DNA from: an uncultured delta proteobacterium
Lineage (GTDB): Bacteria; Myxococcota; UBA727; VGSZ01
Assembly: GCA_963775425.1 (NCBI GenBank)
Contig: CAVZJB010000005.1
Location: 576,001-640,000, forward strand
DNA length: 64,000 nucleotides
Direction of reading: 5' to 3'
Shown: one piece after another, positions 27,344 through 43,181 of the stretch
Position numbering within the stretch: the first letter of the stretch is position 1
Layout: each line of letters opens with the position of its first letter
Made by a program: the position numbers and the translations under genes
The notes under the pieces: generated by a model
Database searches by the model: none
Seen by the model: only the letters and a program-made list of their open reading frames with translations
What the model was told of the DNA's origin: nothing

Positions 27344-30300
27344 ATGCCCGTCATCACCAACCGCCCGAACGTCACGCCCCCCCAGAACACCGGCGCCGCC
27401 GGGGCCACCGGCAACGTGCAGGGCACCACGCCGGCGAGCAACGCCGCGGGCAACGGGACGCCCCAGCCGGGGCAGGTGCAGTCGGGGGCCGGCCAGGTCA
27501 TCAACGCCCAGCGCGTCGCGGTCAGCGGGCTCGGCACGCTCCAGATGACGGCCACGGGCACCACCAACCGCTTCGCGCGTGACGCCACGTTCGACACCTA
27601 CAGCGCCGTCGGTGACGGCAAGGTGGCGCGCGGCTACGTGAAGGTCGACGCGGAGCCCATCCAGGGCGGGTGCCGCGTGCACGTGGAGAGCTTCCACGGC
27701 AACCACAACGACAGCGTCACCCTCTGGCTCCTCGCCGAGGTGCTCGACGAAAAGACGCACCAGCTCCGCACCGTCACGCTGGCGGTGCTCGCCAACGCCG
27801 CCAACCTCAACGGCACCAGCTTCCGCGGCAACACCTACTACGACCTCAGCTACGCGGACATCAACGCGTACCTCCAGCAGATGAACCCCAACCTCAAGGT
27901 CACGCCGGGGCAGACGCAGCTCAGCGTCGCCGCGCGCTGGGGCAACGGGCACCAGGCCGGCGGCTTCGCGCGCGGCGGTTCGTTCCGCATCCCGCCCGAG
28001 GCCAAGCAGCAAAACGCCACCGCGGTGCGCGCGGCGGCGGCGTCGCGCACGGGCACCGAGCAGGCCGATCTGCCGCTCGATATGGAGGTGGCGTACCCGC
28101 CGCAGCTCGTGCAGCAGATCCCGCAGCTCAAGCCCGACGGCGCCATCGTCAGCCGGCTCGAGAGCGAGCTGAAGGGCGCCACCACCAAGGACGCCATGGT
28201 GCGCGCGGTGCGCGAGATGTACCGCCTCGCCGAGAAGGCCAAGGCGGGCGACAAGACCGACATCGAGGCCATCTTCGGCAAGGACTGGACGGTCGAGACG
28301 GTGGATCGCTACTGGCTCAAGGACGACGGCAACAGCACCGAGGGGAAGGCCGGCACCGGCTTCTTCAAAGGCTTCCGCGTCGACGACCACGGGCTGCCTA
28401 TCCAGGACCCGATGCACGACACGTACATGGACGACGCCAACCTCTCGATGACGCGCCACCAGGGCGTCATCCGTTTGCGCAAGAACCAGCAGGCCACGGT
28501 CGTCAACGTCAAGCCCGGCGGCGGCCGCCGCGACGACAAGACGCAGATCACGCAGCGCATCGAGGTGGGCGTCGAGCTCAAGCCCGACGCCAACGCCGCC
28601 GACGCGTCGGTGGCCATGCGCGGTTTGGCGACCAACGCGGCGTGGTCGGGCACCGTGTTCAACCAGGCGCAGCGGGAGATGTCGCAGCTCGATCCCACGC
28701 TCCAGCTCGCGCAGACCCTGGTGCCTTGGCTCGACGTCACCCAGGACCGCCACAAGTTCACGGTGAAGAACGAAAAGACCGGCGTCGAGATCGAGCTGTC
28801 GCTCGACTTCGTGAAGACCAGGACGCTGCGGCCCAACCACGCCAACCCCGACGGCACCCCGCGCGAGACCGAGTTCTACGTGCTCGAGGGCGAGCTCGAT
28901 CACCTGCAGCTCCAGTCGGCCAACAGGGGCACCTACGCCGCCAACGGCGCCGTCAACAACGCCGTGTTCCAGACGGAGCAGCAGCAGGAGCAGTGGCTGA
29001 AGGCCACGTCCACCGACGTCACCATGGACATCGATCCGCGGCTGCACGAGCTCAAGGATCTCGACAACGCGAGCTTCAGGAGCACGTCGAGCTACAAGCA
29101 GTTCGAGCAGGTGTCGGAGAAGATGCTGCCGCACCTGTTCCCCAAGGGCCTCGACAGCGGCCGGCAGAAGGCCGCGCACGCCGCCGAGATCATGGGCCTC
29201 GTGTGCTTCGACGATCGCCAGCTCCTCGCGGCGGCCAAGAAGGCCGTGCACGAGGGCGGCTATGCGTGGTCGCCGGCGGTGGAGCAGGCGTTCCTCGCGG
29301 CGGTGCAGGTGCCGGCCACGCGCACCAGGATCGACCTGCAGATCGCGTCCGGTGGCTCGCGGAGCGTGCCCACGTTCATCCAGCAGACCATCGGCAACGC
29401 CACGCCGCTCGAGTACGACGTCGCCAAGGCCAAGAAGCGCGTGGAAGGCAGGCTGGCCGAGCTCGGCTACGCCTCCACGCCGGAGATCGACAAGATGCTC
29501 GAGGGCCTCGACCCGCAGAAGGTGCCGCCGGCCAACTTCGAGTCGTTCCTGCAGCGCATGCAGCAGCTCCAGGACGCGCAGGTGATGCAGCAGCTCGCGC
29601 AGGCCTTGGGGGTCGCGCCGGTGCCGGTGCCCTCGCCCGACGTGAAGAAGCTCGTCGCCGCTTCCCTGCCGCTGATGGAGCAGCACCTCGAGGCGGCGGC
29701 GTGCGACAAGTCGAGCGCCGGCGAGGTGGCCGCCTTCCTCGAGAAGGCCGCGGCCGCGGGCGCGACGCTCTTCGAGCTGCGCACGCTGGTGCAGAACCTG
29801 TCGAACAACCCGCAGGTGCGGCTCGACCAGGTCGCGCAGCAGAAGAACGTCCCCGGCGGCGCGCCCAAGCTCAAGGCGTCGCTGGATCGCGTGATGGTCA
29901 CGGTGCAGCAGTCGCTGCAGCGGCAGTACCTGAAGGTCGACGACGCGCTCACCAGGTTCATGGCCAAGGCCATCGAGGGGCGCACGCCGCAGGAGGCGCT
30001 GCAGTTCGCGCAGCAGCTCGCCAACAACGCGCAGGTGCTGCTCGACAACGAGGGCAAGCGCATCGGCGTGGCGACGCCCAAGCTCGTCTGGGACATGAGC
30101 GCCGTCGAGGCGCTCCTCGCGCCCACGTTCACCAACCTGCGCGTGCTGTTCGACGCGCCGATGAAGAAGCTCGTGGCCGAGTGCCTCGACGCGGGCGTCC
30201 CGCCGGCCACGCTGCAGCGCGCGTTCGCACAGATGCAGAACCAGCCGCTGGCCCAGGCGCTGCACGCAGGCGGGGTCTACCTCGTCGGCGTCCAGGTGCC

Positions 30301-30751
30301 CGACCCCACCTACGACGTCGCGGGCATCGAGTCGTGGCTGCGCACGGGGCTGCAGGCGTTCACCAACGCGCTGCCGTCGTCGTCGAAGGCCTTGCAGGAT
30401 TGGGTGGAGAAGCTGCTCAAGCAGGGCCACACGCCCACGCAGGTCTACAACTTCGGCGTGTACCAGGCGTCGCAGGGCATGCAGCGCGCGGCCGCGTACC
30501 TCGGCAACCCGCCGCCGCCGGCGCCGCCGGCGCTGCCGTGGGACATCGACGGCCTGGTGTCGTCGTGGCAGGCGGCGTTCGGCGCCACCTGGTCGCCGCA
30601 GGTGGAGACGTTCTTGAAGGACGGCCTCAAGAAGGCGTTCGACACACCCGCCTTCGTCCTCAACAACGTCAGCCGCTACGCCGCGCAGCCCAAGAACCTC
30701 TGCAACATGCTGAGCCAGGCCTCCGGCCTCCCCGTCCCTCCCGGCGTGTGA
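27344..30751 (+). CDS. Large hypothetical protein (1135 aa) with central CYTH-like domain
   Basis: ESELK, DTYMDD..L..IRLRK, RIEV, DRHKF, IELSLD, LEGELD, QKA motifs in CYTH order; no signal peptide. Confidence 0.65.
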   Translation: MPVITNRPNVTPPQNTGAAGATGNVQGTTPASNAAGNGTPQPGQVQSGAGQVINAQRVAVSGLGTLQMTATGTTNRFARDATFDTYSAVGDGKVARGYVKVDAEPIQGGCRVHVESFHGNHNDSVTLWLLAEVLDEKTHQLRTVTLAVLANAANLNGTSFRGNTYYDLSYADINAYLQQMNPNLKVTPGQTQLSVAARWGNGHQAGGFARGGSFRIPPEAKQQNATAVRAAAASRTGTEQADLPLDMEVAYPPQLVQQIPQLKPDGAIVSRLESELKGATTKDAMVRAVREMYRLAEKAKAGDKTDIEAIFGKDWTVETVDRYWLKDDGNSTEGKAGTGFFKGFRVDDHGLPIQDPMHDTYMDDANLSMTRHQGVIRLRKNQQATVVNVKPGGGRRDDKTQITQRIEVGVELKPDANAADASVAMRGLATNAAWSGTVFNQAQREMSQLDPTLQLAQTLVPWLDVTQDRHKFTVKNEKTGVEIELSLDFVKTRTLRPNHANPDGTPRETEFYVLEGELDHLQLQSANRGTYAANGAVNNAVFQTEQQQEQWLKATSTDVTMDIDPRLHELKDLDNASFRSTSSYKQFEQVSEKMLPHLFPKGLDSGRQKAAHAAEIMGLVCFDDRQLLAAAKKAVHEGGYAWSPAVEQAFLAAVQVPATRTRIDLQIASGGSRSVPTFIQQTIGNATPLEYDVAKAKKRVEGRLAELGYASTPEIDKMLEGLDPQKVPPANFESFLQRMQQLQDAQVMQQLAQALGVAPVPVPSPDVKKLVAASLPLMEQHLEAAACDKSSAGEVAAFLEKAAAAGATLFELRTLVQNLSNNPQVRLDQVAQQKNVPGGAPKLKASLDRVMVTVQQSLQRQYLKVDDALTRFMAKAIEGRTPQEALQFAQQLANNAQVLLDNEGKRIGVATPKLVWDMSAVEALLAPTFTNLRVLFDAPMKKLVAECLDAGVPPATLQRAFAQMQNQPLAQALHAGGVYLVGVQVPDPTYDVAGIESWLRTGLQAFTNALPSSSKALQDWVEKLLKQGHTPTQVYNFGVYQASQGMQRAAAYLGNPPPPAPPALPWDIDGLVSSWQAAFGATWSPQVETFLKDGLKKAFDTPAFVLNNVSRYAAQPKNLCNMLSQASGLPVPPGV

Positions 30752-33851: not shown

Positions 33852-34469
33852 ATGGCGACGATGGCGAAACAGGACGGCGCTCCGGACACAGAGGAGGGCA
33901 CGACCGACCTCGCGCCGGTGGTCGGCCAGAACCTCCGCCGGCTGCGCGGCGAGCGGAAGCTCTCGCTCGAGGGCCTCGCCAAAATCTCGGGCGTGTCGCG
34001 CGCGATGCTCGGCCAGATCGAGCTCGGCCACTCGGCCCCCACCATCAACGTCCTCTGGAAGATCGCGCGCGCGCTCGACCTGCCGTTCTCGGCGCTCATC
34101 AGCGCACCCAAGCACGTCGGCGGCACCCGGGTCCTCCACGCCACGCGCACCAAGCGGCTGATGTCGCACGACGGCAGCTTCTCCTCGCGCGCGCTCTTTC
34201 CGATCGACGAGCCGCGCCGCGTGGAGCTCTACGAGCTCATCTTGAAGAAGGGCGGCGTGGAAGAGGCCGACGCGCACCCGGCGGGCACCCGCGAGAACCT
34301 GGTGGTGGCGCACGGCGACGTCGAGATCGTCGTCGGCGGCGAGTCGCACCGGTTGACGACGGGCGACGCCATCCTGTTCGAAGCCGACAGCCCGCACAGC
34401 TACAACAACGTCGGCGACGTCGACGCCACCATGTACCTCGTGATGACGTACGCCGAGCAAGTCGGTTGA
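33852..34469 (+). CDS. XRE-family transcriptional regulator with cupin domain (SutR-like)
   Basis: NLRRLRGERKLSLEGLAKISGVSRAMLGQIE..PTINVLWKIA; cupin H..GTRE, GDAILFEADSPHSY. Confidence 0.92.
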   Translation: MATMAKQDGAPDTEEGTTDLAPVVGQNLRRLRGERKLSLEGLAKISGVSRAMLGQIELGHSAPTINVLWKIARALDLPFSALISAPKHVGGTRVLHATRTKRLMSHDGSFSSRALFPIDEPRRVELYELILKKGGVEEADAHPAGTRENLVVAHGDVEIVVGGESHRLTTGDAILFEADSPHSYNNVGDVDATMYLVMTYAEQVG

Positions 34470-34517
34470 GGTGAGCGCCGGACGCGCCGGCGCCCACGCA
34501 TCATCGGCGGGGAGCGT

Positions 34518-35243
34518 TCAGCCGCGCCGCGCCTTGCCGGCGCGCCACACGCGCGCCGGCTTCTTCGTCGTCACGCGCTTGCCGGGCGCCGGCACCACCA
34601 CGCCGTCGTCGACGAGCTTCAGGAAGCGGCGGCGGAAGTTCCCCGGATCGAGCGCGCGGCCGTGCAGCGCCTCGTGCACCGCGCGCAGCTCGGCGATGGT
34701 GAAGGTCTGCGGCGCGAGGTGCAGCGCGAGCGGTCCGCGGTCGACGTCCCGGCGCATGCGAGCGAGCGCGGCGTCGACGATGGCGGCGTGGTCGAAGGCG
34801 AGCGGCGGCAGCGCCGCCGCGGGGAACCACCCTGCCGCGGCGGCGTCGGAGCCCGCCTTCACGAAGCCCGCGAGCTCGGGGCGCACGAGCGCGAAGTACG
34901 CCACGGTGATCACGCGCCCGCGCGGATCGCGGCCCGGCGTCCCGAACGCGCCGAGCTGCTCGAGCAGCACCTGCGCCCGCGACAAGCCCGTCTCCTCGAC
35001 GAGCTCGCGCGCCGCCGCGTCGTCGAGCGGCTCCCCGCCCTTGCCGCCGGCGCCCACCTGCAGGAACCCGCCGGGCAAAGCGTGCGTGCCCGCGAAGGGG
35101 GGACCGCCGCGCACGACGAGCAGAACGTGCAGCGCCCCGTCGATGAGCGTGAACACGACGATGTCGGCGGTGACGGACGCGCGCGGATGGTGCGCCAGGA
35201 ACTCCGCGTCGGCGGCGCGGCGGCTCGACGCGCGCTCAGCCAC
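34518..35243 (-). CDS. nrtR: NrtR-like NUDIX/winged-helix transcriptional regulator
   Basis: VTADIVVF, ALPGGF, E..DDAAARELVEETGL Nudix box, LEQLGAFG..GRDPR, LAFDH, FTIAEL..LDPGNFRRR DNA-binding domain; alternative start at 35270. Confidence 0.85.
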   Translation of the reverse strand: MAERASSRRAADAEFLAHHPRASVTADIVVFTLIDGALHVLLVVRGGPPFAGTHALPGGFLQVGAGGKGGEPLDDAAARELVEETGLSRAQVLLEQLGAFGTPGRDPRGRVITVAYFALVRPELAGFVKAGSDAAAAGWFPAAALPPLAFDHAAIVDAALARMRRDVDRGPLALHLAPQTFTIAELRAVHEALHGRALDPGNFRRRFLKLVDDGVVVPAPGKRVTTKKPARVWRAGKARRG

Positions 35244-35348
35244 GGCGCGCCAGCTCCTCGAGCGGCCCATGCCGGTACACGTTCCACGGCGGCGACGTCA
35301 CGCGCCGACGCTACACCGGCCGCAAGGCGGCGCGCGCGTTCGGCTGTG

Positions 35349-36170
35349 TCACGGTGCGAAGAAGCCGGCGCCGGCGCCGGGGGCGACGCGGCCCTGGCTC
35401 GCGCGAACGGCGCTCTGCGACACCATCTGGAACGCGCCGCGCAGCCCCGCCGGCGTCGCGTCCTTCTGGACGAGCACGCAGCCGTCGGGGAACCCCATGT
35501 TCGCGGCGACCGTCTTGAAGTCGTCGTCGCCCACGCCGACGAAAGCGAGGATGAACTGCTCGCTCTTCAAGAGGTCGGCCGCGAGCTTCCGGCACGCGCG
35601 CGCCGAGCGGCGGCTCCCGACGTCCTGTCCGTCCGTGACGACGACCACGATGCTGCGCGTGGGTGTCCCCGCGTCGCGCAGCCGTTGCGCGTAGGCGACG
35701 TTGGCGGCGCAGGCGTCGATGAACGTGTCGTACAGGTGCGTGGTGCCGCCCGAGCGGTACGTGGCCCCGGGCTGCAAGCGCACCGCGTCGTCGACGGGGA
35801 CGTAGCCGTGCACGACGTCGGCGTGGCTCTGGAAGGTCCACAGCGCCACCAGCACCGCGTCCTTCTCCTTGGAGCCCGCGAAGGCGTCGAGCAACGCGCG
35901 CTCGCCGTCGCAGACCGCCTGCTCGAGGCCTCGTCCCCCGATGGAAGACGAGGCGTCGAGCACCAGGGTGATGAGCGTGACGTCGCTCGCCTGGATGTCG
36001 TCGGCGGCCATGCCTGCGGCGCCGGCGATGACGAGCGCGCCGAGGTCGCCGGACAAGAGCGTCGCCGACTGCGCCGACAGCGTGCCCGTCTGCTGCGCGC
36101 GCGAGAAGAGCGCGGCGACGTCGAGGGCGTTGCGGTTTTTATTGTTGCCGTTGTTGTTTCCGTGGGTCAC
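35349..36170 (-). CDS. von Willebrand factor A (vWA, TerY-like) domain protein
   Basis: LVLDASSSI (DxSxS MIDAS), GGTTHLYD, VVVVTDGQD, FVGVG; GTGA overlap with the nicotinamidase stop. Confidence 0.82.
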   Translation of the reverse strand: MTHGNNNGNNKNRNALDVAALFSRAQQTGTLSAQSATLLSGDLGALVIAGAAGMAADDIQASDVTLITLVLDASSSIGGRGLEQAVCDGERALLDAFAGSKEKDAVLVALWTFQSHADVVHGYVPVDDAVRLQPGATYRSGGTTHLYDTFIDACAANVAYAQRLRDAGTPTRSIVVVVTDGQDVGSRRSARACRKLAADLLKSEQFILAFVGVGDDDFKTVAANMGFPDGCVLVQKDATPAGLRGAFQMVSQSAVRASQGRVAPGAGAGFFAP

Positions 36171-37109
36171 GGGAGCACCTCCGTGGAGCGAACGATGTGC
36201 ATGCCGGCGCGCTTGAAGCCCTCCATGGCCTCGGCGGCGATGCGCGGGAAGTCGAGCGAGGGCGGCAGCGGGTCGAGCGGCGGCGGCGGCACCGGGCTCA
36301 TGCAGTCCTCGAGGATCCAGAATCTTGTCGAGGAGCGCAGGGTCGCACTGCGCCTCCATGTCCTTGAGCGTCGCGAGCACGCAGTGGCTCTTGGCCTGGC
36401 CGAACACATAGACCTTGTCGTAGTCCATGAGCAGCTTGAAGAACGGCGCGTTGAAGGCGCCGACGCTCTTGTGTCCGAGCTCCTTCACCTCGGGCGACAA
36501 CACCGAGTAGTTCTCGGTCATCGCGTGCGTGCCCTTGGTCTCGAAGTGCGTCTGGGCCTTGCGCGCCACCGCGTGGAAGATCGCCGCCTCCATCAGCGAC
36601 GGCACCAACGCGTGCGAGAGCCCGCCGAGGAGGGTGTGGAAGGGCCACACGGTGAGCACGTACTTGCCGGTCTCCTCGAGCCTCTTGGTGTACTCGAGGC
36701 ACTCGCGCGGGTGCGCCAGCGGCGTCCAGCGCCCGGCGCGCACGTCCTCGTGGAAGATGGGCGTGAACGGCGCGGGGTGGTTGCCCTTGTCGTCGGTCCA
36801 CCACGCGGGGTGGAAGATCTGGAACACGCGGTGCGTGTCGAGCGAGAAGTGCAGCGCGGTGATGCGCTCCATGTTGCGGTAGAGCCAGTCGAGCGTGCGC
36901 CGCATGTCGTCGACGGCGCCGGGGACGAAGAGGGACGCGCCGGGGGTGCAAAAGCCTACCTGGCAGTCGATCCCGAAGGCGGCGATTCGCTCCTTGTCGG
37001 CGGAGGCGGGCGCGAGGTCCGCCGTTCGCGCCGCGTCGGCGACCTCGGCGGCGCGTTCGATCCAGAGCTCGCCGATGCGTTTGTCGTCGTGGAATGCCGG
37101 TGTCCTCAT
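36167..37109 (-). CDS. Nicotinamidase-like cysteine hydrolase (isochorismatase superfamily), with a +1 frameshift at about 36321
   Basis: AGGAGG RBS; IDCQVGFC, LFVPGA, SLDTH, VWPFH, TKG, NYS, GQAKSHCV; deleting one base restores DKIWILEDCMSPV, read through to the stop at 36167. Confidence 0.85.
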
Positions 37110-37123
37110 GGTGTCCTCCTCGT

Positions 37124-39061
37124 TCAAGGCCGCAAACGCAGCCGGGTGATGACCCTGCGGGCGACGACAAGGAGGGAGCCGCCCGCACCGGGCAGGAGCT
37201 CCACGCTGTCGTCGACGAAGGGCCGGGTGTCCGAAAACGTCGTCCCCGTGATCAGGCGGTCGCCGTCCACCTCGACCGCGCACACGCCCTCGTTGGATGC
37301 CGACAAAATCTTGCCGCCGGCGATGCACTTGCCGCGGATGCTCGCGAGGATGGGCGCGCTCTCGGGTGCCCCCGACGCCGCCGCGACGAGGTGGCCGCTC
37401 CCATCGACGAGCGACAGCGTGTGCATGCGCCTGCCGTCGACGTCCTCGGCGATGCCCACGAGGCACCATGCCGGCGACGGGCGCGCGCCCGCCTCGCTCC
37501 GTGCGAAGACGGCCTCGACGTCGACGACCTTTCCCCGCGGCTGCGGGAGCGTCACGTCGAAGAAGCGGTCGCGGGCGAAGCCGAACGCCATCAGCGCGCG
37601 CCCGGCGCGATACAGGCCGAGGCCGCCGTCGTCCGCCGACAGGAGCGCGGTCTTTCCGGCGAGCACGCGGCCGACGCGCGTCCGCGTCTCGTGGTGCACG
37701 AGCGCGTCGCCCTCCACGACGAACAGCCCGCCGCGTCCCGCGGCGAACGCGTCGCCGCTCGTGTGCGCCCGATCGACGACGGCGCCGCCGCGCACCTTCA
37801 CCAAAGCGCCGTCGAGCCCGATCCACGTCTCTTCGCCCGCGATCACGAAGCGCATCCCCGCCGGCCGCTCCCCCGTGAGCACCGTGGCGTCCGTCGTGGG
37901 ACGCGCCCCCGCGGTGGGGCGCCCGAGCTTCGTCATCGCCCGCGCCTCCCGGCGCACCCCGCCGTCCTCCTCGATCAGGTACGCCACGTCGCCGCCGTCG
38001 TTGCCGCGCACGGCGCGCGCGAGCAGCACGAGGCCGCGGGCCTCCACCACGACCTCCTCGACGACGCCGCCGCGGGTCTTCACCACCGGCGCCGGCACCG
38101 CGGTCCTGCACGCGGGGCACGCGGCGCGGGCGTGCTCCAGGCCGCATGACGCGCAGGCGCGAAAGCGCAGCCGATCGAGCGCCGTCGACGACGACAACGG
38201 CGCGCGCTCACCTTTGTCGAAGCAGCGCGCGAAGTCGTCGAGCATCTCGTCGCTGAGCGTCTCGAGCGGGAGCGCCGCGCGCGGCAGTTGCACGTCGCCG
38301 CGCAGCACGCTCCACGAGGCCTCCGCGCGCCGCAGGAGCGTCGGCAGCTTCGCGTGCACGCCGCCGTACGGGTGGATGCACAGGAGCGACTGAAAGAGGA
38401 GCGCGCGCAGCGCGAAGGCGTCGCTGCCGGCGTCGAAGCAGGGAGCGTCGACGAGGCTGCGCCCGTAGAGCCGCGGGTCGAGGAAGCGCTCGTGGGCCAC
38501 CGGGCAGGGCAGCGCGCCGACCTGCATGGAGTCCGCGTCGATGAGGAACGGGGCCGGCGCGCCCGCGGCGCCGGGCGCGAGCACCACGTTGCCGTCGTTG
38601 AGGTCGCCGACCACCACGCCTGTCGCGTGGAGCGCGTCGAGGGCCGCCGCGAGGGCGCGAAAGATCGACACGACGTCGCCCGCGCGCTCGCTGCGGCCCT
38701 TGCGCGCGAGCCGCGCGATGTCGGCGGCGTCGCGGACGCGTCGCATGGCGTAGCCGGCCACGCCGCCGCGCTCGTCGAGGATGAGCTCCTCGGGCGTGAT
38801 GACGAGCGCGGGCAGGCCGGTGGGGAACGCGCGCAGCTTCTGCTCGCGCAGCCGGGCGATCTTCTGCGCGAGCGCGGCGGAGGACGACGCCGGCGCGGCG
38901 CTCGTCGTCGTCGCGAGCGCATCGTGGAAGATCTTCAGGGCGAGCTCGAGCGTCGGGTGCGCATACACCCGCGCCTCGCCGCCCTGGCCGAGGAGCAGCG
39001 TGTCGTCGAGGACGAGCGGCGCGCCGCGAAACGTCAAGCGCGCTGCGGGGGTGGTCTTCAT
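37124..39061 (-). CDS. Atypical Ser/Thr kinase (YegI/TerY-P type) with Zn-ribbon and beta-rich C-terminal domain
   Basis: LGQGGEARVY, ALKIF, LH..GVVVGDLNDGNV, LIDADS, SDAFAL..LFQSL..IHPYGG; CASC..CPAC; ATGA overlap with the PP2C stop. Confidence 0.82.
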   Translation of the reverse strand: MKTTPAARLTFRGAPLVLDDTLLLGQGGEARVYAHPTLELALKIFHDALATTTSAAPASSSAALAQKIARLREQKLRAFPTGLPALVITPEELILDERGGVAGYAMRRVRDAADIARLARKGRSERAGDVVSIFRALAAALDALHATGVVVGDLNDGNVVLAPGAAGAPAPFLIDADSMQVGALPCPVAHERFLDPRLYGRSLVDAPCFDAGSDAFALRALLFQSLLCIHPYGGVHAKLPTLLRRAEASWSVLRGDVQLPRAALPLETLSDEMLDDFARCFDKGERAPLSSSTALDRLRFRACASCGLEHARAACPACRTAVPAPVVKTRGGVVEEVVVEARGLVLLARAVRGNDGGDVAYLIEEDGGVRREARAMTKLGRPTAGARPTTDATVLTGERPAGMRFVIAGEETWIGLDGALVKVRGGAVVDRAHTSGDAFAAGRGGLFVVEGDALVHHETRTRVGRVLAGKTALLSADDGGLGLYRAGRALMAFGFARDRFFDVTLPQPRGKVVDVEAVFARSEAGARPSPAWCLVGIAEDVDGRRMHTLSLVDGSGHLVAAASGAPESAPILASIRGKCIAGGKILSASNEGVCAVEVDGDRLITGTTFSDTRPFVDDSVELLPGAGGSLLVVARRVITRLRLRP

Positions 39062-39852
39062 GGGCACGGCGGCCCCCTGCGGATCACGGCCACGCTGCAG
39101 TCGTCGACGGGGCCGCCGCATGCGCACCAGGCGTTCATGCGCTTTTGCGCGAGGCTCTTGTTGTGCAGGTAGCGCGCGCCGCGCTCGAATTCGGCGAGGC
39201 CGCCGAGGGCGGTGCCGTCGGCGAGCACGGCGTCGCGCGCCGCGATGAGCTCGCCGGCGCCGTCGCTGCAGACCGCCAACGACGACGAAAACGACCCGAC
39301 GTGGTGAACGTGCGCGCGGAGCCTGCCGTCGAACAGCGCGTACGCGGGGTAGTCGGGTGCCGGCCCCTCGTCGAGGACGATCACGCGCCCGTCCACGCTC
39401 ACCAGGCCGTCTCCCGCGCCGAACACGACCGCGCTGTCACCGGTGGCCACCGCTGCGACCACGGTGAACAAGAGGTGCTCTTCGACCACCGCGGCGACGT
39501 CGCCTTCGTCGACGGCGAGGGCGCGCGTAAGGCGGCGCAGCTCGTGGACGAGCGCGCCCATGACGAGCGCAGGCAGCGCCGCCAGCGTCGCCCCCTCCCG
39601 CACGCGGCGGGCGGCGTCGGCGGCGACGAAGCGGGCACCCACGCCCGCTCCGACCTCCGACCGCGCCCCCGCCGAGCAGCCGTCGGCCACGCAGACCGCG
39701 ACGCACGCGCCGTCGTCGACCATCGCCGTGACGTCCTGGCCGCCGCGCCCGAGGCGGCGATGCGCACGGCCGGGCACGCTCGCGGTGAGGACGACCGGCG
39801 CCGCGCCCGTCATGGCGTGGCTGCCGTTTGCTTGTGATGCGACAAGAGTCAT
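39058..39852 (-). CDS. Protein phosphatase 2C domain protein (YegK-like)
   Basis: SVPGRAH..GQD, VADGCS..SEVGA, LLFT, GAGDG, CSDG, DDCS; alternative start at 39813. Confidence 0.85.
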   Translation of the reverse strand: MTLVASQANGSHAMTGAAPVVLTASVPGRAHRRLGRGGQDVTAMVDDGACVAVCVADGCSAGARSEVGAGVGARFVAADAARRVREGATLAALPALVMGALVHELRRLTRALAVDEGDVAAVVEEHLLFTVVAAVATGDSAVVFGAGDGLVSVDGRVIVLDEGPAPDYPAYALFDGRLRAHVHHVGSFSSSLAVCSDGAGELIAARDAVLADGTALGGLAEFERGARYLHNKSLAQKRMNAWCACGGPVDDCSVAVIRRGPPCP

Positions 39853-39864
39853 TAAGACTATTAT
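39842..39864. promoter_or_regulatory. Putative NrtR operator (GT-N7-AC palindrome)
   Basis: ACAAGAGTCATTAAGACTATTAT: GTC-N5-GAC core with AT-rich flanks, conspicuous in a GC-rich genome; nrtR is in the same operon. Confidence 0.75.
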
Positions 39865-39888
39865 CGTGTCGAAAGAGGCGCTCGTCAA
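39860..39888 (-). promoter_or_regulatory. Sigma70-type promoter for the PP2C-kinase-nicotinamidase-vWA-nrtR operon
   Basis: Minus strand reads TTGACG-N17-GATAAT. Confidence 0.75.
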
Positions 39889-40079
39889 GGGCCGGCCAAA
39901 TGCGCCAAGGAATTCACAGGGTTCGGGGCAGATCACCCCGGCGTCGAGGGTTGTGCGAGCACGCCGTCGCGCCGCGTTCCGGAATCAGGAGCGCGCGCGC
40001 GCCGTTTTCGCCTTCGGTTCCACAGCGGCCATTGCCCGCGTTTTCGACGTGGCTACACGCTCAAGGTGGAGATGTTCCG

Positions 40080-41519
40080 ATGAAGAAGCCTCTTTCCTCT
40101 CTCATTCTCGTCGTCGCCGTCCTCGCCACTCCGGCGCTCGCGCGTGCCGACAATCTCTGGCTCGAGCGCTCGTCCGCTGCGCCGCGGGTGCAGCTCCCGT
40201 CGCTCTCGCCGCTCGTGAAGGAGTCGGAGCCGGCGGTGCTGTCCATCTACGTCGAGAGCACCGTGCGTCCCGACGTCGACACGAACGACCCCCGGCTCGA
40301 CTTTTTCCGGCGCTTCGGCTTCAAGGTCCCTGACTTCAAGCAGCAAGGCCAGGGTACGGGGTTCATCATCTCGCCCCAGGGTTACGCGCTCACCAATCAC
40401 CACGTCGTCGAGAACGCCACCAAGATCCAGGTGCGCGTCGACGGCTCACCGCAGCTCCTGGGCGCGCACGTCGTCGGCGATGATCCGCGCACCGACGTGG
40501 CGCTCATCAAGATCGACAGCAGCCGCAAGGACTGGCCGGCGTTGCCGCTCGGCAACAGCGACATCCTTCAGGTGGGCGACTTCGTCGTCGCCATCGGCAA
40601 CCCCTTCGGCCTGTCGCAGTCGGTCTCCATGGGCATCGTCTCCGCCAAGGGGCGCCGCGACATCGCGCCCTCGGGGCGCCACGGGCTCTACGACTTCATC
40701 CAGACCGACGCGAGCATCAACCCGGGCAACTCGGGGGGGCCGCTGCTCAACGTCGCCGGTGAGGTCATCGGCATCAACTCGGCCATCAACGCCGCCGGGC
40801 AGGGCATCGGCTTCGCCATCCCCATCAACATGGTGAAGCAGGAGCTCCCGCAGCTCGAGAAGAGCGGCCACGTCGACCGCGCCTGGATCGGCGTCGCCAT
40901 CGAGGACGTCAACCCCACCGTCGCCAAGGGCCTCGGCCTCGATCACGCCCGCGGCGCGCTGGTGGCCTCCGTCGTCGACAAGAGCCCGGCGTACAAGGCC
41001 GGCCTCAAGCCGGGCGACGTCATCACCAAGTTCGACGGCAAGAAGATCGAGCGGGCGAGCAATCTCCCGCTCCTCGCCTCGAACGCGGGCATCGGCAAGT
41101 CCGTCATGGTCGAGCTCGTGCGGGACGGGGAGCTGCGCTCGGCGCGCGTCACGCTCGCCAAGATGCCGAACCAGGGTGAGGAGGCGGGCGCCGGCCCGGG
41201 GAGCTCGTCGCAGGGCGAAGAGCAGAACAACCCGGGCAAGATCGGCGTCAGGGTCGACACGCTCGACGACAACTACCGCCAGCGCCTGGATCTGCCGGGC
41301 AGCGTCCACGGCGCCATCATCATCGACGTCGACCAGAACGGCGTCGCGGCGCAGGCCGGGCTCGAGGCGGGCGACGTCGTCACCCAGGTGAACGGCGCCT
41401 CCGTCACCAGCGCTCGCGCCTTCGTGCGCCAGCTCGACAAGGTGAAGAGCGGTGGGCTCTTGAAGCTCATCGTCAACCGCCGCGGCACGCAGACGTTCGT
41501 GGCGTTCGTCAAGCCATAG
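40080..41519 (+). CDS. Do/DegP (HtrA) family serine endopeptidase with two PDZ domains
   Basis: Signal peptide; GTGFII, LTNHHVV, TDVALIKI, IQTDASINPGNSGGPL; two PDZ domains. Confidence 0.95.
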   Translation: MKKPLSSLILVVAVLATPALARADNLWLERSSAAPRVQLPSLSPLVKESEPAVLSIYVESTVRPDVDTNDPRLDFFRRFGFKVPDFKQQGQGTGFIISPQGYALTNHHVVENATKIQVRVDGSPQLLGAHVVGDDPRTDVALIKIDSSRKDWPALPLGNSDILQVGDFVVAIGNPFGLSQSVSMGIVSAKGRRDIAPSGRHGLYDFIQTDASINPGNSGGPLLNVAGEVIGINSAINAAGQGIGFAIPINMVKQELPQLEKSGHVDRAWIGVAIEDVNPTVAKGLGLDHARGALVASVVDKSPAYKAGLKPGDVITKFDGKKIERASNLPLLASNAGIGKSVMVELVRDGELRSARVTLAKMPNQGEEAGAGPGSSSQGEEQNNPGKIGVRVDTLDDNYRQRLDLPGSVHGAIIIDVDQNGVAAQAGLEAGDVVTQVNGASVTSARAFVRQLDKVKSGGLLKLIVNRRGTQTFVAFVKP

Positions 41520-41654
41520 CCCGCTCTCGGTCATCGCGCCGATAAGCGCGCGCGGCGGTCGCCCTTCCGGCGTCGCCGTGCGCGCTTGTCGCATCAGGCG
41601 ATCGTGACCCGGCGCGCCCGTGCCCCCCGCCGATACCTTGGGGAGAGGTGGTCC

Positions 41655-43181
41655 ATGGCGGACGGGACGACGGTCGACAGCGCGAGCAACGCGGAGCGGC
41701 AGCGGCAGGTGGCGCAGGCGCAGGCCGCGCAGACGCAGCAGCAGCAGCAGGCGCAGGCGCCCGCCACGGACCCGGCCAAGCAGGCCGCGCAGCGCGACGA
41801 CACCGTGGCGGCGGCCGCCACCGCCAACGACGTGCAGGGTCAGCGCGGGCAGAAGCTCCTCGACGCCAAGCCCAAGGCGCCCGGCGCGCCCGCGCTCCCC
41901 GGCGGCGATCCCGTCACGCCCGCCGCCACCAGGCTCACCGCCGACCAGGAGAGGACCGCGGCGTCGTTGCGCGCGCGGTTCACCCAAAAGCCCGACGCCG
42001 CCGGCTTCAACACGTACGACATCAAGAACGACAAGATGCGGGCGCTGCGCGACGCCACCGACTACGCGTCGAAGATCACGGACCCCGGGCAGCGGGAGCG
42101 GTTCGTCGCGTCCATCGCGCCGCAGGCGGGCGCCGCCGCGGGCGACGTCAAGAACCCCGGCGCCATCGAGCAACTCAAGAGGCTCGGCGAGCTCGGCACC
42201 ACGCAGAGCGCGCAGACCATGGCCAGGGAGGCCGTGCGCACCGGCTTCTTCGAAAACACCGTCCCCTTCGCCGACGGAAAGACCAAGGTCGGGCAGGCGC
42301 TCGGGGACATCCGGCAGCGGTCCAACGACAAGCTCGCCGGCGTCGCCGGCGACGTCGCCAAGGCCGTGATCCCGTTCGTCGACGCGGGCAACAAGCTCGT
42401 GCACGGTGACGTGAAGGGCGCGGCGAAGAGCGCGGGCATCGACGCCGCGCTGCTGCTCGCCGGCGGCGTCATCGGCAAGGGCGTGAAGCTCGCTGCGCCC
42501 CTCATCAAGGACGGCGTGAAGGCGGGCCTCGACCTCCTGAGAGGCTCCGCGAGCACGGCGGAGCGCACGGTGGGGACCGAGGCGAAGGTCGTCGAGCAGC
42601 TCGCCAAGCCCACGGTGACGGCGCCGCCGACGGCGGAGACGCCGCCCGCCGGACGGGACCTGCTCCACGATCCCAAGCAGACCGAGCCCTTCAAGAACCA
42701 GAAGATCACCGACACGGGCATCCACGCGCAGGGCGGGCTCACGCGCGCCGAGGGCGAGGCGATCAACGGCTTTCGCGACAAGCTGAACGCGTACAACGAC
42801 AAGTTCGGCCTCAACCGCGACCTCCCGCCGACGGCGGGCAGCGCGCGCGACGCCGTGTCGAGCGCCAACCGCGGCAAGGACGGGCTCGCGCGGCTCAACG
42901 CGGAGATCCGCCGCACCGACGAGACCGTGAACAAGCACCTCACGCCCGATGACCTCGCCGGCCGCGCCAAGGAAGCGCGCGGCGTCAGCACCGGCTACGA
43001 CCACGTCAAAGAGACCCAGGACGCGTACCTGAACCTCAAGAGCTCCGTGGCGCGCATCGACAAGTACCTCGCCGATCACCCGAACCTGCCCGAGGCGCAG
43101 GCGCGCTACCTCCTCGAGCGCAGGAACGGCCACGCCGACCTGGCGAGGACGCTCGAGAACACGCTCGGCTTTTACGAGTAG
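41655..43181 (+). CDS. Putative polymorphic toxin with C-terminal Ntox28-like (tRNase) domain
   Basis: GGAGAGG RBS; Gln/Ala-rich N-terminus; pre-toxin-like hydrophobic segment (IPFVD..DAALLLAGGVIGKGVK); C-terminal KHLTPDDLAG..E..G..YDHVKETQDAY.NL. Confidence 0.65.
   Translation: MADGTTVDSASNAERQRQVAQAQAAQTQQQQQAQAPATDPAKQAAQRDDTVAAAATANDVQGQRGQKLLDAKPKAPGAPALPGGDPVTPAATRLTADQERTAASLRARFTQKPDAAGFNTYDIKNDKMRALRDATDYASKITDPGQRERFVASIAPQAGAAAGDVKNPGAIEQLKRLGELGTTQSAQTMAREAVRTGFFENTVPFADGKTKVGQALGDIRQRSNDKLAGVAGDVAKAVIPFVDAGNKLVHGDVKGAAKSAGIDAALLLAGGVIGKGVKLAAPLIKDGVKAGLDLLRGSASTAERTVGTEAKVVEQLAKPTVTAPPTAETPPAGRDLLHDPKQTEPFKNQKITDTGIHAQGGLTRAEGEAINGFRDKLNAYNDKFGLNRDLPPTAGSARDAVSSANRGKDGLARLNAEIRRTDETVNKHLTPDDLAGRAKEARGVSTGYDHVKETQDAYLNLKSSVARIDKYLADHPNLPEAQARYLLERRNGHADLARTLENTLGFYE

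Follow-up and report, generated by a model that had tools for sequence, protein, structure and literature searches.

The operon described here is closest to two known systems. NrtR regulons, of which nrtR-pncA-pncB is an example, are controlled by a repressor composed of a Nudix domain and a winged helix, which acts on its target promoters through a 21-bp palindrome whose core is GT-N7-AC (Rodionov et al. 2008, PMC2330246, consulted sections). The TerY-P triad, represented in E. coli by yegL-pphC ... yegI, combines a vWA protein, a PP2C phosphatase, and a kinase that is fused at its C-terminus to a zinc ribbon (CoCoNuT, PMC10542128, consulted sections). According to the same sections, a TerY-P-like module was reported by Gao et al. 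(2020) as a stand-alone anti-phage system. In this report, we describe a five-gene operon from a 64,000-nucleotide stretch of DNA (the window; contig CAVZJB010000005.1, positions 576,001 to 640,000) of an uncultured delta proteobacterium assigned to the Myxococcota. The operon encodes a PP2C phosphatase, a kinase, a nicotinamidase-like amidohydrolase (NAM), a vWA protein, and an NrtR-family regulator. We consider it probable that this is an NrtR-repressed Preiss-Handler NAD-salvage module that took in a TerY-P-like phosphorylation triad.

With the NrtR regulons in the consulted sections of PMC2330246, the locus shares the Nudix and winged-helix repressor, the core of the palindrome, and a nicotinamidase as target, together with pncB in related genomes. 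The operon adds a kinase, a PP2C, and a vWA protein to this set, and its nicotinamidase differs from those of the NrtR regulons in being a long form of ~320 residues without a Pfam match. That paper has 0 occurrences of "Myxococc", and its 4 occurrences of "kinase" concern no such cluster; further NrtR regulons are possible in its supplementary tables, which lie outside our literature search. The triad of vWA protein, PP2C, and zinc-ribbon kinase is held in common with TerY-P as presented in the consulted sections of PMC10542128. Here, however, the triad is not one uninterrupted three-gene unit, since the kinase and vWA genes are separated by that for an enzyme; the kinase ends in a beta-propeller, and the neighbors are housekeeping genes rather than ter or restriction genes. 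The system of Gao et al., as summarized in those sections, also consists of a vWA protein, a phosphatase, and a kinase. Its kinase is fused to an OB fold, whereas the kinase from the window has a zinc ribbon and a propeller as its fusion partners; unlike the anti-phage triad, the module from the window is tied to NAD salvage. PncA and Pnc1 of the isochorismatase superfamily resemble NAM in fold and in being paired with pncB, and the invariant Asp, Lys, and Cys and the D-x-H motif of NAM may correspond to residues of theirs. They are shorter (~180-215 residues versus ~320), and the NAM of the window lacks PF00857. No paper on the union of a nicotinamidase with the triad was found in a literature search whose scope did not extend to the founding TerY-P paper (PMC4104200) or to supplements.

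The G+C content of the window is ~72%, and the third-position G+C plot together with the translations places all coding in 34518-39936 on the minus strand. The first gene encodes a PP2C-family Ser/Thr phosphatase (39058..39813; PF13672 PP2C_2, 1.7e-9) that starts with the ATG at 39813 and stops at 39058; an alternative ATG at 39852 is located inside the operator. An ATGA overlap connects this gene to that for a YegI-type Ser/Thr kinase of 645 residues (37124..39061; coding from 39061 to 37127, stop at 37124), which was identified by BLASTP, a structural model, and Foldseek. After a gap of 14 bp follows the frameshifted gene for NAM (36167..37109, ATG at 37109), which was assigned from the translations, the alignment of homologues, and a fold match. 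The stop codon of NAM overlaps the start codon of the vWA gene within a GTGA. The vWA protein (35349..36170; PF00092 VWA, 9.6e-7; coding from 36170 to 35352 with a GTG start, stop at 35349) has a conserved N-terminal extension of ~60 residues and an intact MIDAS motif. The final gene, 78 bp further on, encodes the NrtR-family regulator with its Nudix domain and NrtR winged helix (34518..35270; PF00293 and PF21906; coding from 35270 to 34521, stop at 34518). No Pfam match above the cut-off was obtained for the kinase or NAM, the kinase giving a sub-threshold match only. The original prediction, which was made from the DNA letters alone, had proposed five co-oriented genes behind a promoter with these same overlaps and the 14-bp gap, and the plot and translations agree with it on the genes and their junctions.

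The only promoter-like site within 34300-40200 is a sigma-70-like promoter, TTGACG-N17-GATAAT, on the minus strand at 39860..39888 (10/12 matches; shuffles yield 0.2). Located at 39843..39863 is an NrtR-type operator in the form of a 21-bp palindrome that contains the GT-N7-AC core; it covers the probable start of transcription as well as the final 4 bases of the -10 box. The operator was scored at 24.7 bits with a weight matrix constructed from 33 sites upstream of PP2C in other genomes, with the window left out. In the 8,263,367 bases of the organism's own genome, two sites of at least 18 bits were found, and the one of at least 22 bits is that at 39843-39863; the runner-up (20.7 bits) lies within a coding-like frame. 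Related loci were typed by tblastn in two sets of 80 plus three extra, and those with full flanks were counted. Across these 163 loci (1,902,281 bases), sites of at least 22 bits number 66 in the interval from -260 to +120 relative to the first gene of the operon, as against 5 outside it. The operator stands upstream of pncB in 24 of the 32 operons that begin with pncB, and these positions are independent of the training of the matrix. It also precedes PP2C in six Kofleriaceae-type loci and NAM at three others, namely two lone NAM genes (L155 and L166) and a cyanobacterial locus where NrtR and NAM form a divergon (L139).

The regulator matches PF00293 NUDIX (2.6e-14, 53.8 bits) and PF21906 NrtR_WHD (2.3e-10, 40.9 bits versus a cut-off of 27); the score against the NCBIfam NrtR model is 114 bits, below the 400-bit equivalog cut-off. 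Repressors of the NrtR family are released from DNA by ADP-ribose. The control by NrtR that had been predicted for this operon is upheld at the level of sequence: the operator is located at the promoter, has no second copy in the genome, and recurs in related loci. Elsewhere in the genome (contig C17:275909-276577, or L085:5910-6578), the gene for a third NrtR paralogue (40% identity) is placed between those for a divergent 515-residue SIR2_2-domain protein and for a Band_7/SPFH protein; these genes might by themselves make up an NAD-linked conflict locus.

NAM appears to be a divergent metal-dependent nicotinamidase. The AlphaFold model of a homologue that is 84% identical to the NAM of the window (P0001; predicted local distance difference test score, pLDDT, 78) was matched by Foldseek to solved nicotinamidases at the top of the list, with 2wta from A. 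baumannii first (1.3e-6), followed by 2h0r, 1ilw, and 3r2j (yeast Pnc1p, P. horikoshii, and Leishmania PNC1), and with M. tuberculosis PncA lower down (1.9e-3). The TM-scores of this model against the nicotinamidases are only 0.5-0.6 on target. The predicted fold speaks for the nicotinamidase-like hydrolase of the original prediction. Residues D52, D95, H97, K196, and C247, the D-x-H motif included, are invariant in 29 NAM sequences, and their order along the protein is that expected for the catalytic and metal residues of PncA, to which they may correspond. PF00857 was not matched by the pieces of NAM in the window and was matched by two distant members of the family, P0141 (42.7 bits) and P0129 (26.2 bits).

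A total of 1,326 relatives of NAM were obtained at E <=0.001. The best 120 of these are nearly all ~314-341 residues in length and ~68-84% identical; all 120 lack a Pfam entry, and their sources call some of them "nicotinamidase" or "nicotinamidase-related amidase". A profile search against 1.84 billion representatives gave 2,878 matches, 943 of them at <=1e-30, and a profile search of the PDB with the NAM alignment gave 0 matches at E <=1. A single column distinguishes the copies that are linked to the triad: the position three residues after the catalytic Cys is Ser in all 112 triad-linked sequences and Trp in 35 of the 46 triad-less sequences, and in the window it is Ala. We read no mechanism from this column. 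Six forms of ~590-615 residues (P0126, P0129, P0133, P0135, P0139, and P0142) carry NAM behind a conserved N-terminal domain of ~250 residues that lacks a Pfam match and does not resemble PP2C, the kinase, or vWA. P0141 contains two NAM copies, and in P0124, NAM is followed by ADH_N.

The NAM of the window would comprise ~313 residues if intact. One surplus base at ~36320-36322 divides the gene into a 5' part (37109-36306) and a 3' part in a different frame (36319-36170); in the alignment, the homologues continue in one frame across the break, reading ..DKI[Y/W]ILEDCMSPV... Because of the surplus base and the overlap of the NAM stop with the vWA start, the DNA as written reads through into vWA as a continuous frame of 586 residues (35352-37109, minus strand), made up of NAM residues 1-264, ~49 out-of-frame residues, and the whole of vWA. 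The surplus base may be a real lesion or an error of assembly; of the words sampled from this stretch, at most 7% are present in any one public run.

The kinase consists of a kinase domain (residues 1-300), a Cys4 zinc ribbon (~300-320), and a beta-propeller (327-645). It is related to E. coli YegI by BLASTP (E 2e-11 over 361 columns, across the zinc-ribbon zone). Among 30 sequences, G25, G27, G28, E29, K43, D153, N155, N158, and D175 are invariant, and the ribbon cysteines C303, C306, C315, and C318 are at least 90% conserved. In the AlphaFold2 model (pLDDT 88.9), a domain with the protein-kinase fold is followed by a small ribbon and then by an all-beta domain at the C-terminus. The first Foldseek match is the kinase and WD40 portion of LRRK2 (3.2e-11), followed by protein-kinase domains with TM-scores of 0.6-0.7, and a search of the ESM Atlas with the propeller gave no usable match. 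In the PP2C, the metal-site motifs QD, DG, GDG, DG, and DD are conserved in 95% or more of 119 orthologues, and the MIDAS residues D69, S71, S73, T140, and D176 of the vWA protein are invariant in 30 sequences. The likeness of these two proteins to their E. coli counterparts is faint by BLASTP (PP2C versus PphC, E 0.2; vWA versus YegL, E 0.058). The TerY-P-like nature that had been predicted for the triad is supported by the match to YegI, the metal motifs, and the MIDAS residues. A complex prediction for NAM and vWA, made with alignments for the pair from L057, gave a score of 0.00, which speaks neither for nor against binding.

The order of the genes is conserved. Among the 76 triad loci with full flanks, the arrangement PP2C-KIN-NAM-VWA is found in 30 (a further locus has it inverted, and another has nrtR at a distance) and pncB-PP2C-KIN-NAM-VWA in 29, while the form of the window, with nrtR behind vWA, is found in 9. 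Both pncB and nrtR are present in two loci, pncB follows nrtR in one, PP2C was undetected in two, and nrtR is first in one. NAM is located between the kinase and vWA in every typed triad locus. The first gene of the operon is pncB in 32 of the 76; the protein that is encoded upstream of PP2C is a NAPRTase, with profile matches to 2f7f (1.3e-63) and 4yub (4.3e-50). The triad-less loci with full flanks comprise 18 with NAM alone, 13 with NAM adjoining pncB, and 2 with NAM adjoining nrtR; the order in L111 is pncB-nrtR-NAM. The genome of the window itself encodes pncB and a canonical isochorismatase on another contig. The original prediction had set the module apart from NAD salvage for want of an accompanying pncB, nadV, nadD, or nadE. 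This premise is not supported, given the operons that begin with pncB, the NAM genes that adjoin pncB elsewhere, and the pncB of the organism's own genome.

Across 301 sampled Myxococcota genomes, of which one is marked unpublished (G195), NAM is present in 134 (97 of 115 in family f14; 8 of 40 in f19) and the propeller domain of the kinase in 104, once in each (88 of 115 in f14; 0 of 40 in f19). By a reading of coordinates, the kinase and NAM are within ~1 kb of one another in 56 of these 104. A further 40 propeller loci were fetched, and NAM was found within 3 kb in 34 of them, with the full nrtR-PP2C-KIN-NAM-VWA arrangement in 31; in the other six, the kinase is followed by DNA of lower G+C, and the 3 kb retrieved contain no NAM. 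In one genome, the two genes are 4.9 kb apart, and the remaining seven were uncounted. The propeller kinase thus adjoins NAM in at least 90 of the 104 genomes. Overall, the order PP2C-KIN-NAM-VWA recurs in well over 100 other genomes, and the conservation that had been predicted is borne out by the comparison of neighborhoods.

The form found in Myxococcus xanthus is nrtR-PP2C-kinase-NAM-vWA. In some genera of the Myxococcaceae, DNA with a G+C of 0.56-0.64 (versus ~0.69) is inserted between the kinase and NAM (L177, L178, L181, L182, L183, and L185; also L176 and L179). The open reading frames of the inserts have no Pfam match; in L182, there is an AMP-binding/PP-binding gene on the opposite strand. 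A second copy of NAM in the Myxococcaceae sits in a pncB-NAM pair in 10 of the 10 genomes checked. In 4 of 11 loci, all from one genus of this family (L088, L214, L215, and L217), the pncB-linked copy is followed by a gene for a VgrG-like type VI secretion spike and an amidohydrolase-like gene.

The operon is flanked by genes for M16 peptidases, HtrA, PCMT, an aminotransferase, and an amylase, and neither ter nor restriction genes were found among its neighbors in the window. In a comparison of flanks across the 80 loci of the first set, the divergent HtrA gene is common to L001 and L002 only, and no other neighbor is shared. A regulator with HTH_3 and cupin domains (33852-34469, plus strand) converges on the 3' end of nrtR and is beside the cassette in 0 of these 80 loci. 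Two open reading frames with coding-like G+C are found on the plus strand further out: one of 1,135 residues (27344-30751) with a sub-threshold match to CYTH only, and one of 531 residues (41586-43181) without a Pfam match.

Taken together, the component genes, their operator, and the association with pncB suggest a salvage operon that responds to the consumption of NAD and has a phospho-switch of its own. This reading starts from the gene content, operator, conservation, and folds, which are observed, and it adds to them a putative effector (ADP-ribose), a presumed enzyme activity, and a proposed target for the switch. By binding the palindrome, which lies at the -10 box and the start of transcription, NrtR would keep the operon shut, its own gene included. 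As NAD+ is consumed, ADP-ribose would build up and release NrtR, to judge from what is known of the family. The operon would then supply the putative nicotinamidase, which is expected to convert nicotinamide to nicotinate for PncB, whose gene belongs to the operon in many relatives and has a separate location in the genome of the window. The kinase, with its ribbon and propeller, the PP2C, and the vWA/MIDAS protein would be produced alongside and may constitute a reversible phospho-switch that either gates the nicotinamidase or reports NAD turnover elsewhere. The propeller could serve as the input, and the MIDAS face as a phospho- or metal-dependent docking site.

Several observations weigh against this account. 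No site of at least 22 bits was found in 19 of the 32 loci that begin with PP2C and lack an adjacent nrtR, and the nrtR-first loci of the Myxococcaceae mostly fall below 22 bits, with sites of 20-26 bits or nothing, so control by NrtR is not shown for every lineage. The action of the triad on the nicotinamidase is our proposal, and nothing in these data shows such action. The cultured-type Myxococcaceae possess a separate pncB-NAM pair besides the triad-linked copy; bulk salvage in these organisms can do without the triad copy, so the latter may have a role in signalling or conflict. The consulted sections of PMC10542128 report TerY-P-like modules as stand-alone anti-phage systems. The tree of 158 NAM sequences (FastTree only, unrooted) has two deep clades, each with triad-linked Myxococcota subclades beside triad-less relatives, and a minimum of three changes is required to account for the distribution of the triad label on it. 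Finally, the window's own copy of NAM is broken.

A bolder version, which we put forward tentatively and think rather unlikely, is that myxobacteria have turned the clearance of nicotinamide into a signalling node that reads the breakdown of NAD+. ADP-ribose would be read through NrtR, and nicotinamide through the triad-linked copy of NAM with the kinase, PP2C, and vWA; the resulting reversible phosphorylation state would decide between recovery and shutdown after an attack by NADases, as in phage defence or on exposure to kin toxins or to prey.

It is unlikely that the operon is a dedicated stress or anti-phage system, in which ADP-ribose produced by NADase effectors (SIR2, TIR, or toxins) induces the genes and the triad launches a defensive phosphorylation. 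The operator fits control by a regulator of the ADP-ribose type, TerY-P-like triads are linked to defence in the consulted sections of PMC10542128, the triad-linked NAM of the Myxococcaceae is separate from the pncB-linked copy, and another NrtR paralogue of this genome is encoded beside a SIR2_2 protein. The module, however, is flanked by housekeeping genes, has pncB within the operon in 32 of the 76 full-flank triad loci, and is kept across families as a single copy (88 of 115 f14 genomes), unlike the patchy distribution of defence islands. Its kinase has a propeller in place of the OB fold of the validated TerY-P-like system (consulted sections of PMC10542128). PADLOC returned only weak PD-T4-6 and MkoA matches to the kinase domain. 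This is a weak test: PADLOC also gives no TerY-P match for the E. coli YegI/PphC/YegL control, and thus it cannot test membership. Because of the housekeeping flanks, the inheritance by lineage, the missing OB fold, and the lack of matches to defence families, defence is the less likely primary role. The defence-island context of the original prediction is not supported, given the flanks, the weak PADLOC matches, and the lineage-conserved single copy. The data speak neither for nor against the original proposal that the module detects the destruction of NAD+, and a role in recovery from attack by NADases is compatible with everything seen.

We also regard as improbable the proposal that the triad is an output device, with a nicotinamidase that serves plain salvage and a co-expressed kinase, PP2C, and vWA that phosphorylate unrelated targets in, for example, myxobacterial development or dormancy. 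One NrtR-controlled promoter is common to the five genes, the propeller of the kinase is of a protein-binding type, and no feature of NAM marks the triad-linked copies except for the Ser/Trp column. On the other hand, the NAM gene is invariably placed between those for the kinase and vWA in two deep NAM clades, the junctions being short or overlapping. This fixed position is hard to explain by co-expression alone, and the kinase adjoins NAM in at least 90 of 104 genomes.

Very unlikely, in our estimate, is a role for the vWA/MIDAS protein as a metal-loading or assembly factor for a metallo-nicotinamidase, with the kinase and PP2C timing the step. NAM retains the D-x-H metal motif, the MIDAS motif is intact, the NAM stop and vWA start codons overlap, and metallochaperones are, by the title of PMC6941528, needed for the activity of PncA. 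Yet a vWA partner accompanies 0 of the 35 clade-II NAM sequences from outside the Myxococcota, and the AAA+ partner that is usual for vWA chaperones is absent from the operon. An adjacency of these genes by chance is rejected because of the conservation counts.

Each part of the salvage module favored here is of a known kind (NrtR, a nicotinamidase, and a TerY-P-like triad). We found no published account of their fixed union, which is kept in more than 100 genomes of the Myxococcota and in both deep NAM clades. This union enlarges the NrtR regulon and draws attention to a widespread nicotinamidase family, with 2,878 cluster representatives, whose member in the window and best 120 relatives are without a Pfam match. 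To our knowledge, the function of TerY-P-type triads, including that of YegI, PphC, and YegL in E. coli, is still open, and NAM is an obvious candidate for the client enzyme of such a triad. The operon makes a connection of Ser/Thr signalling with NAD+ homeostasis accessible to study, and it suggests that NAD salvage in the Myxococcota is wired to a phosphorylation switch.

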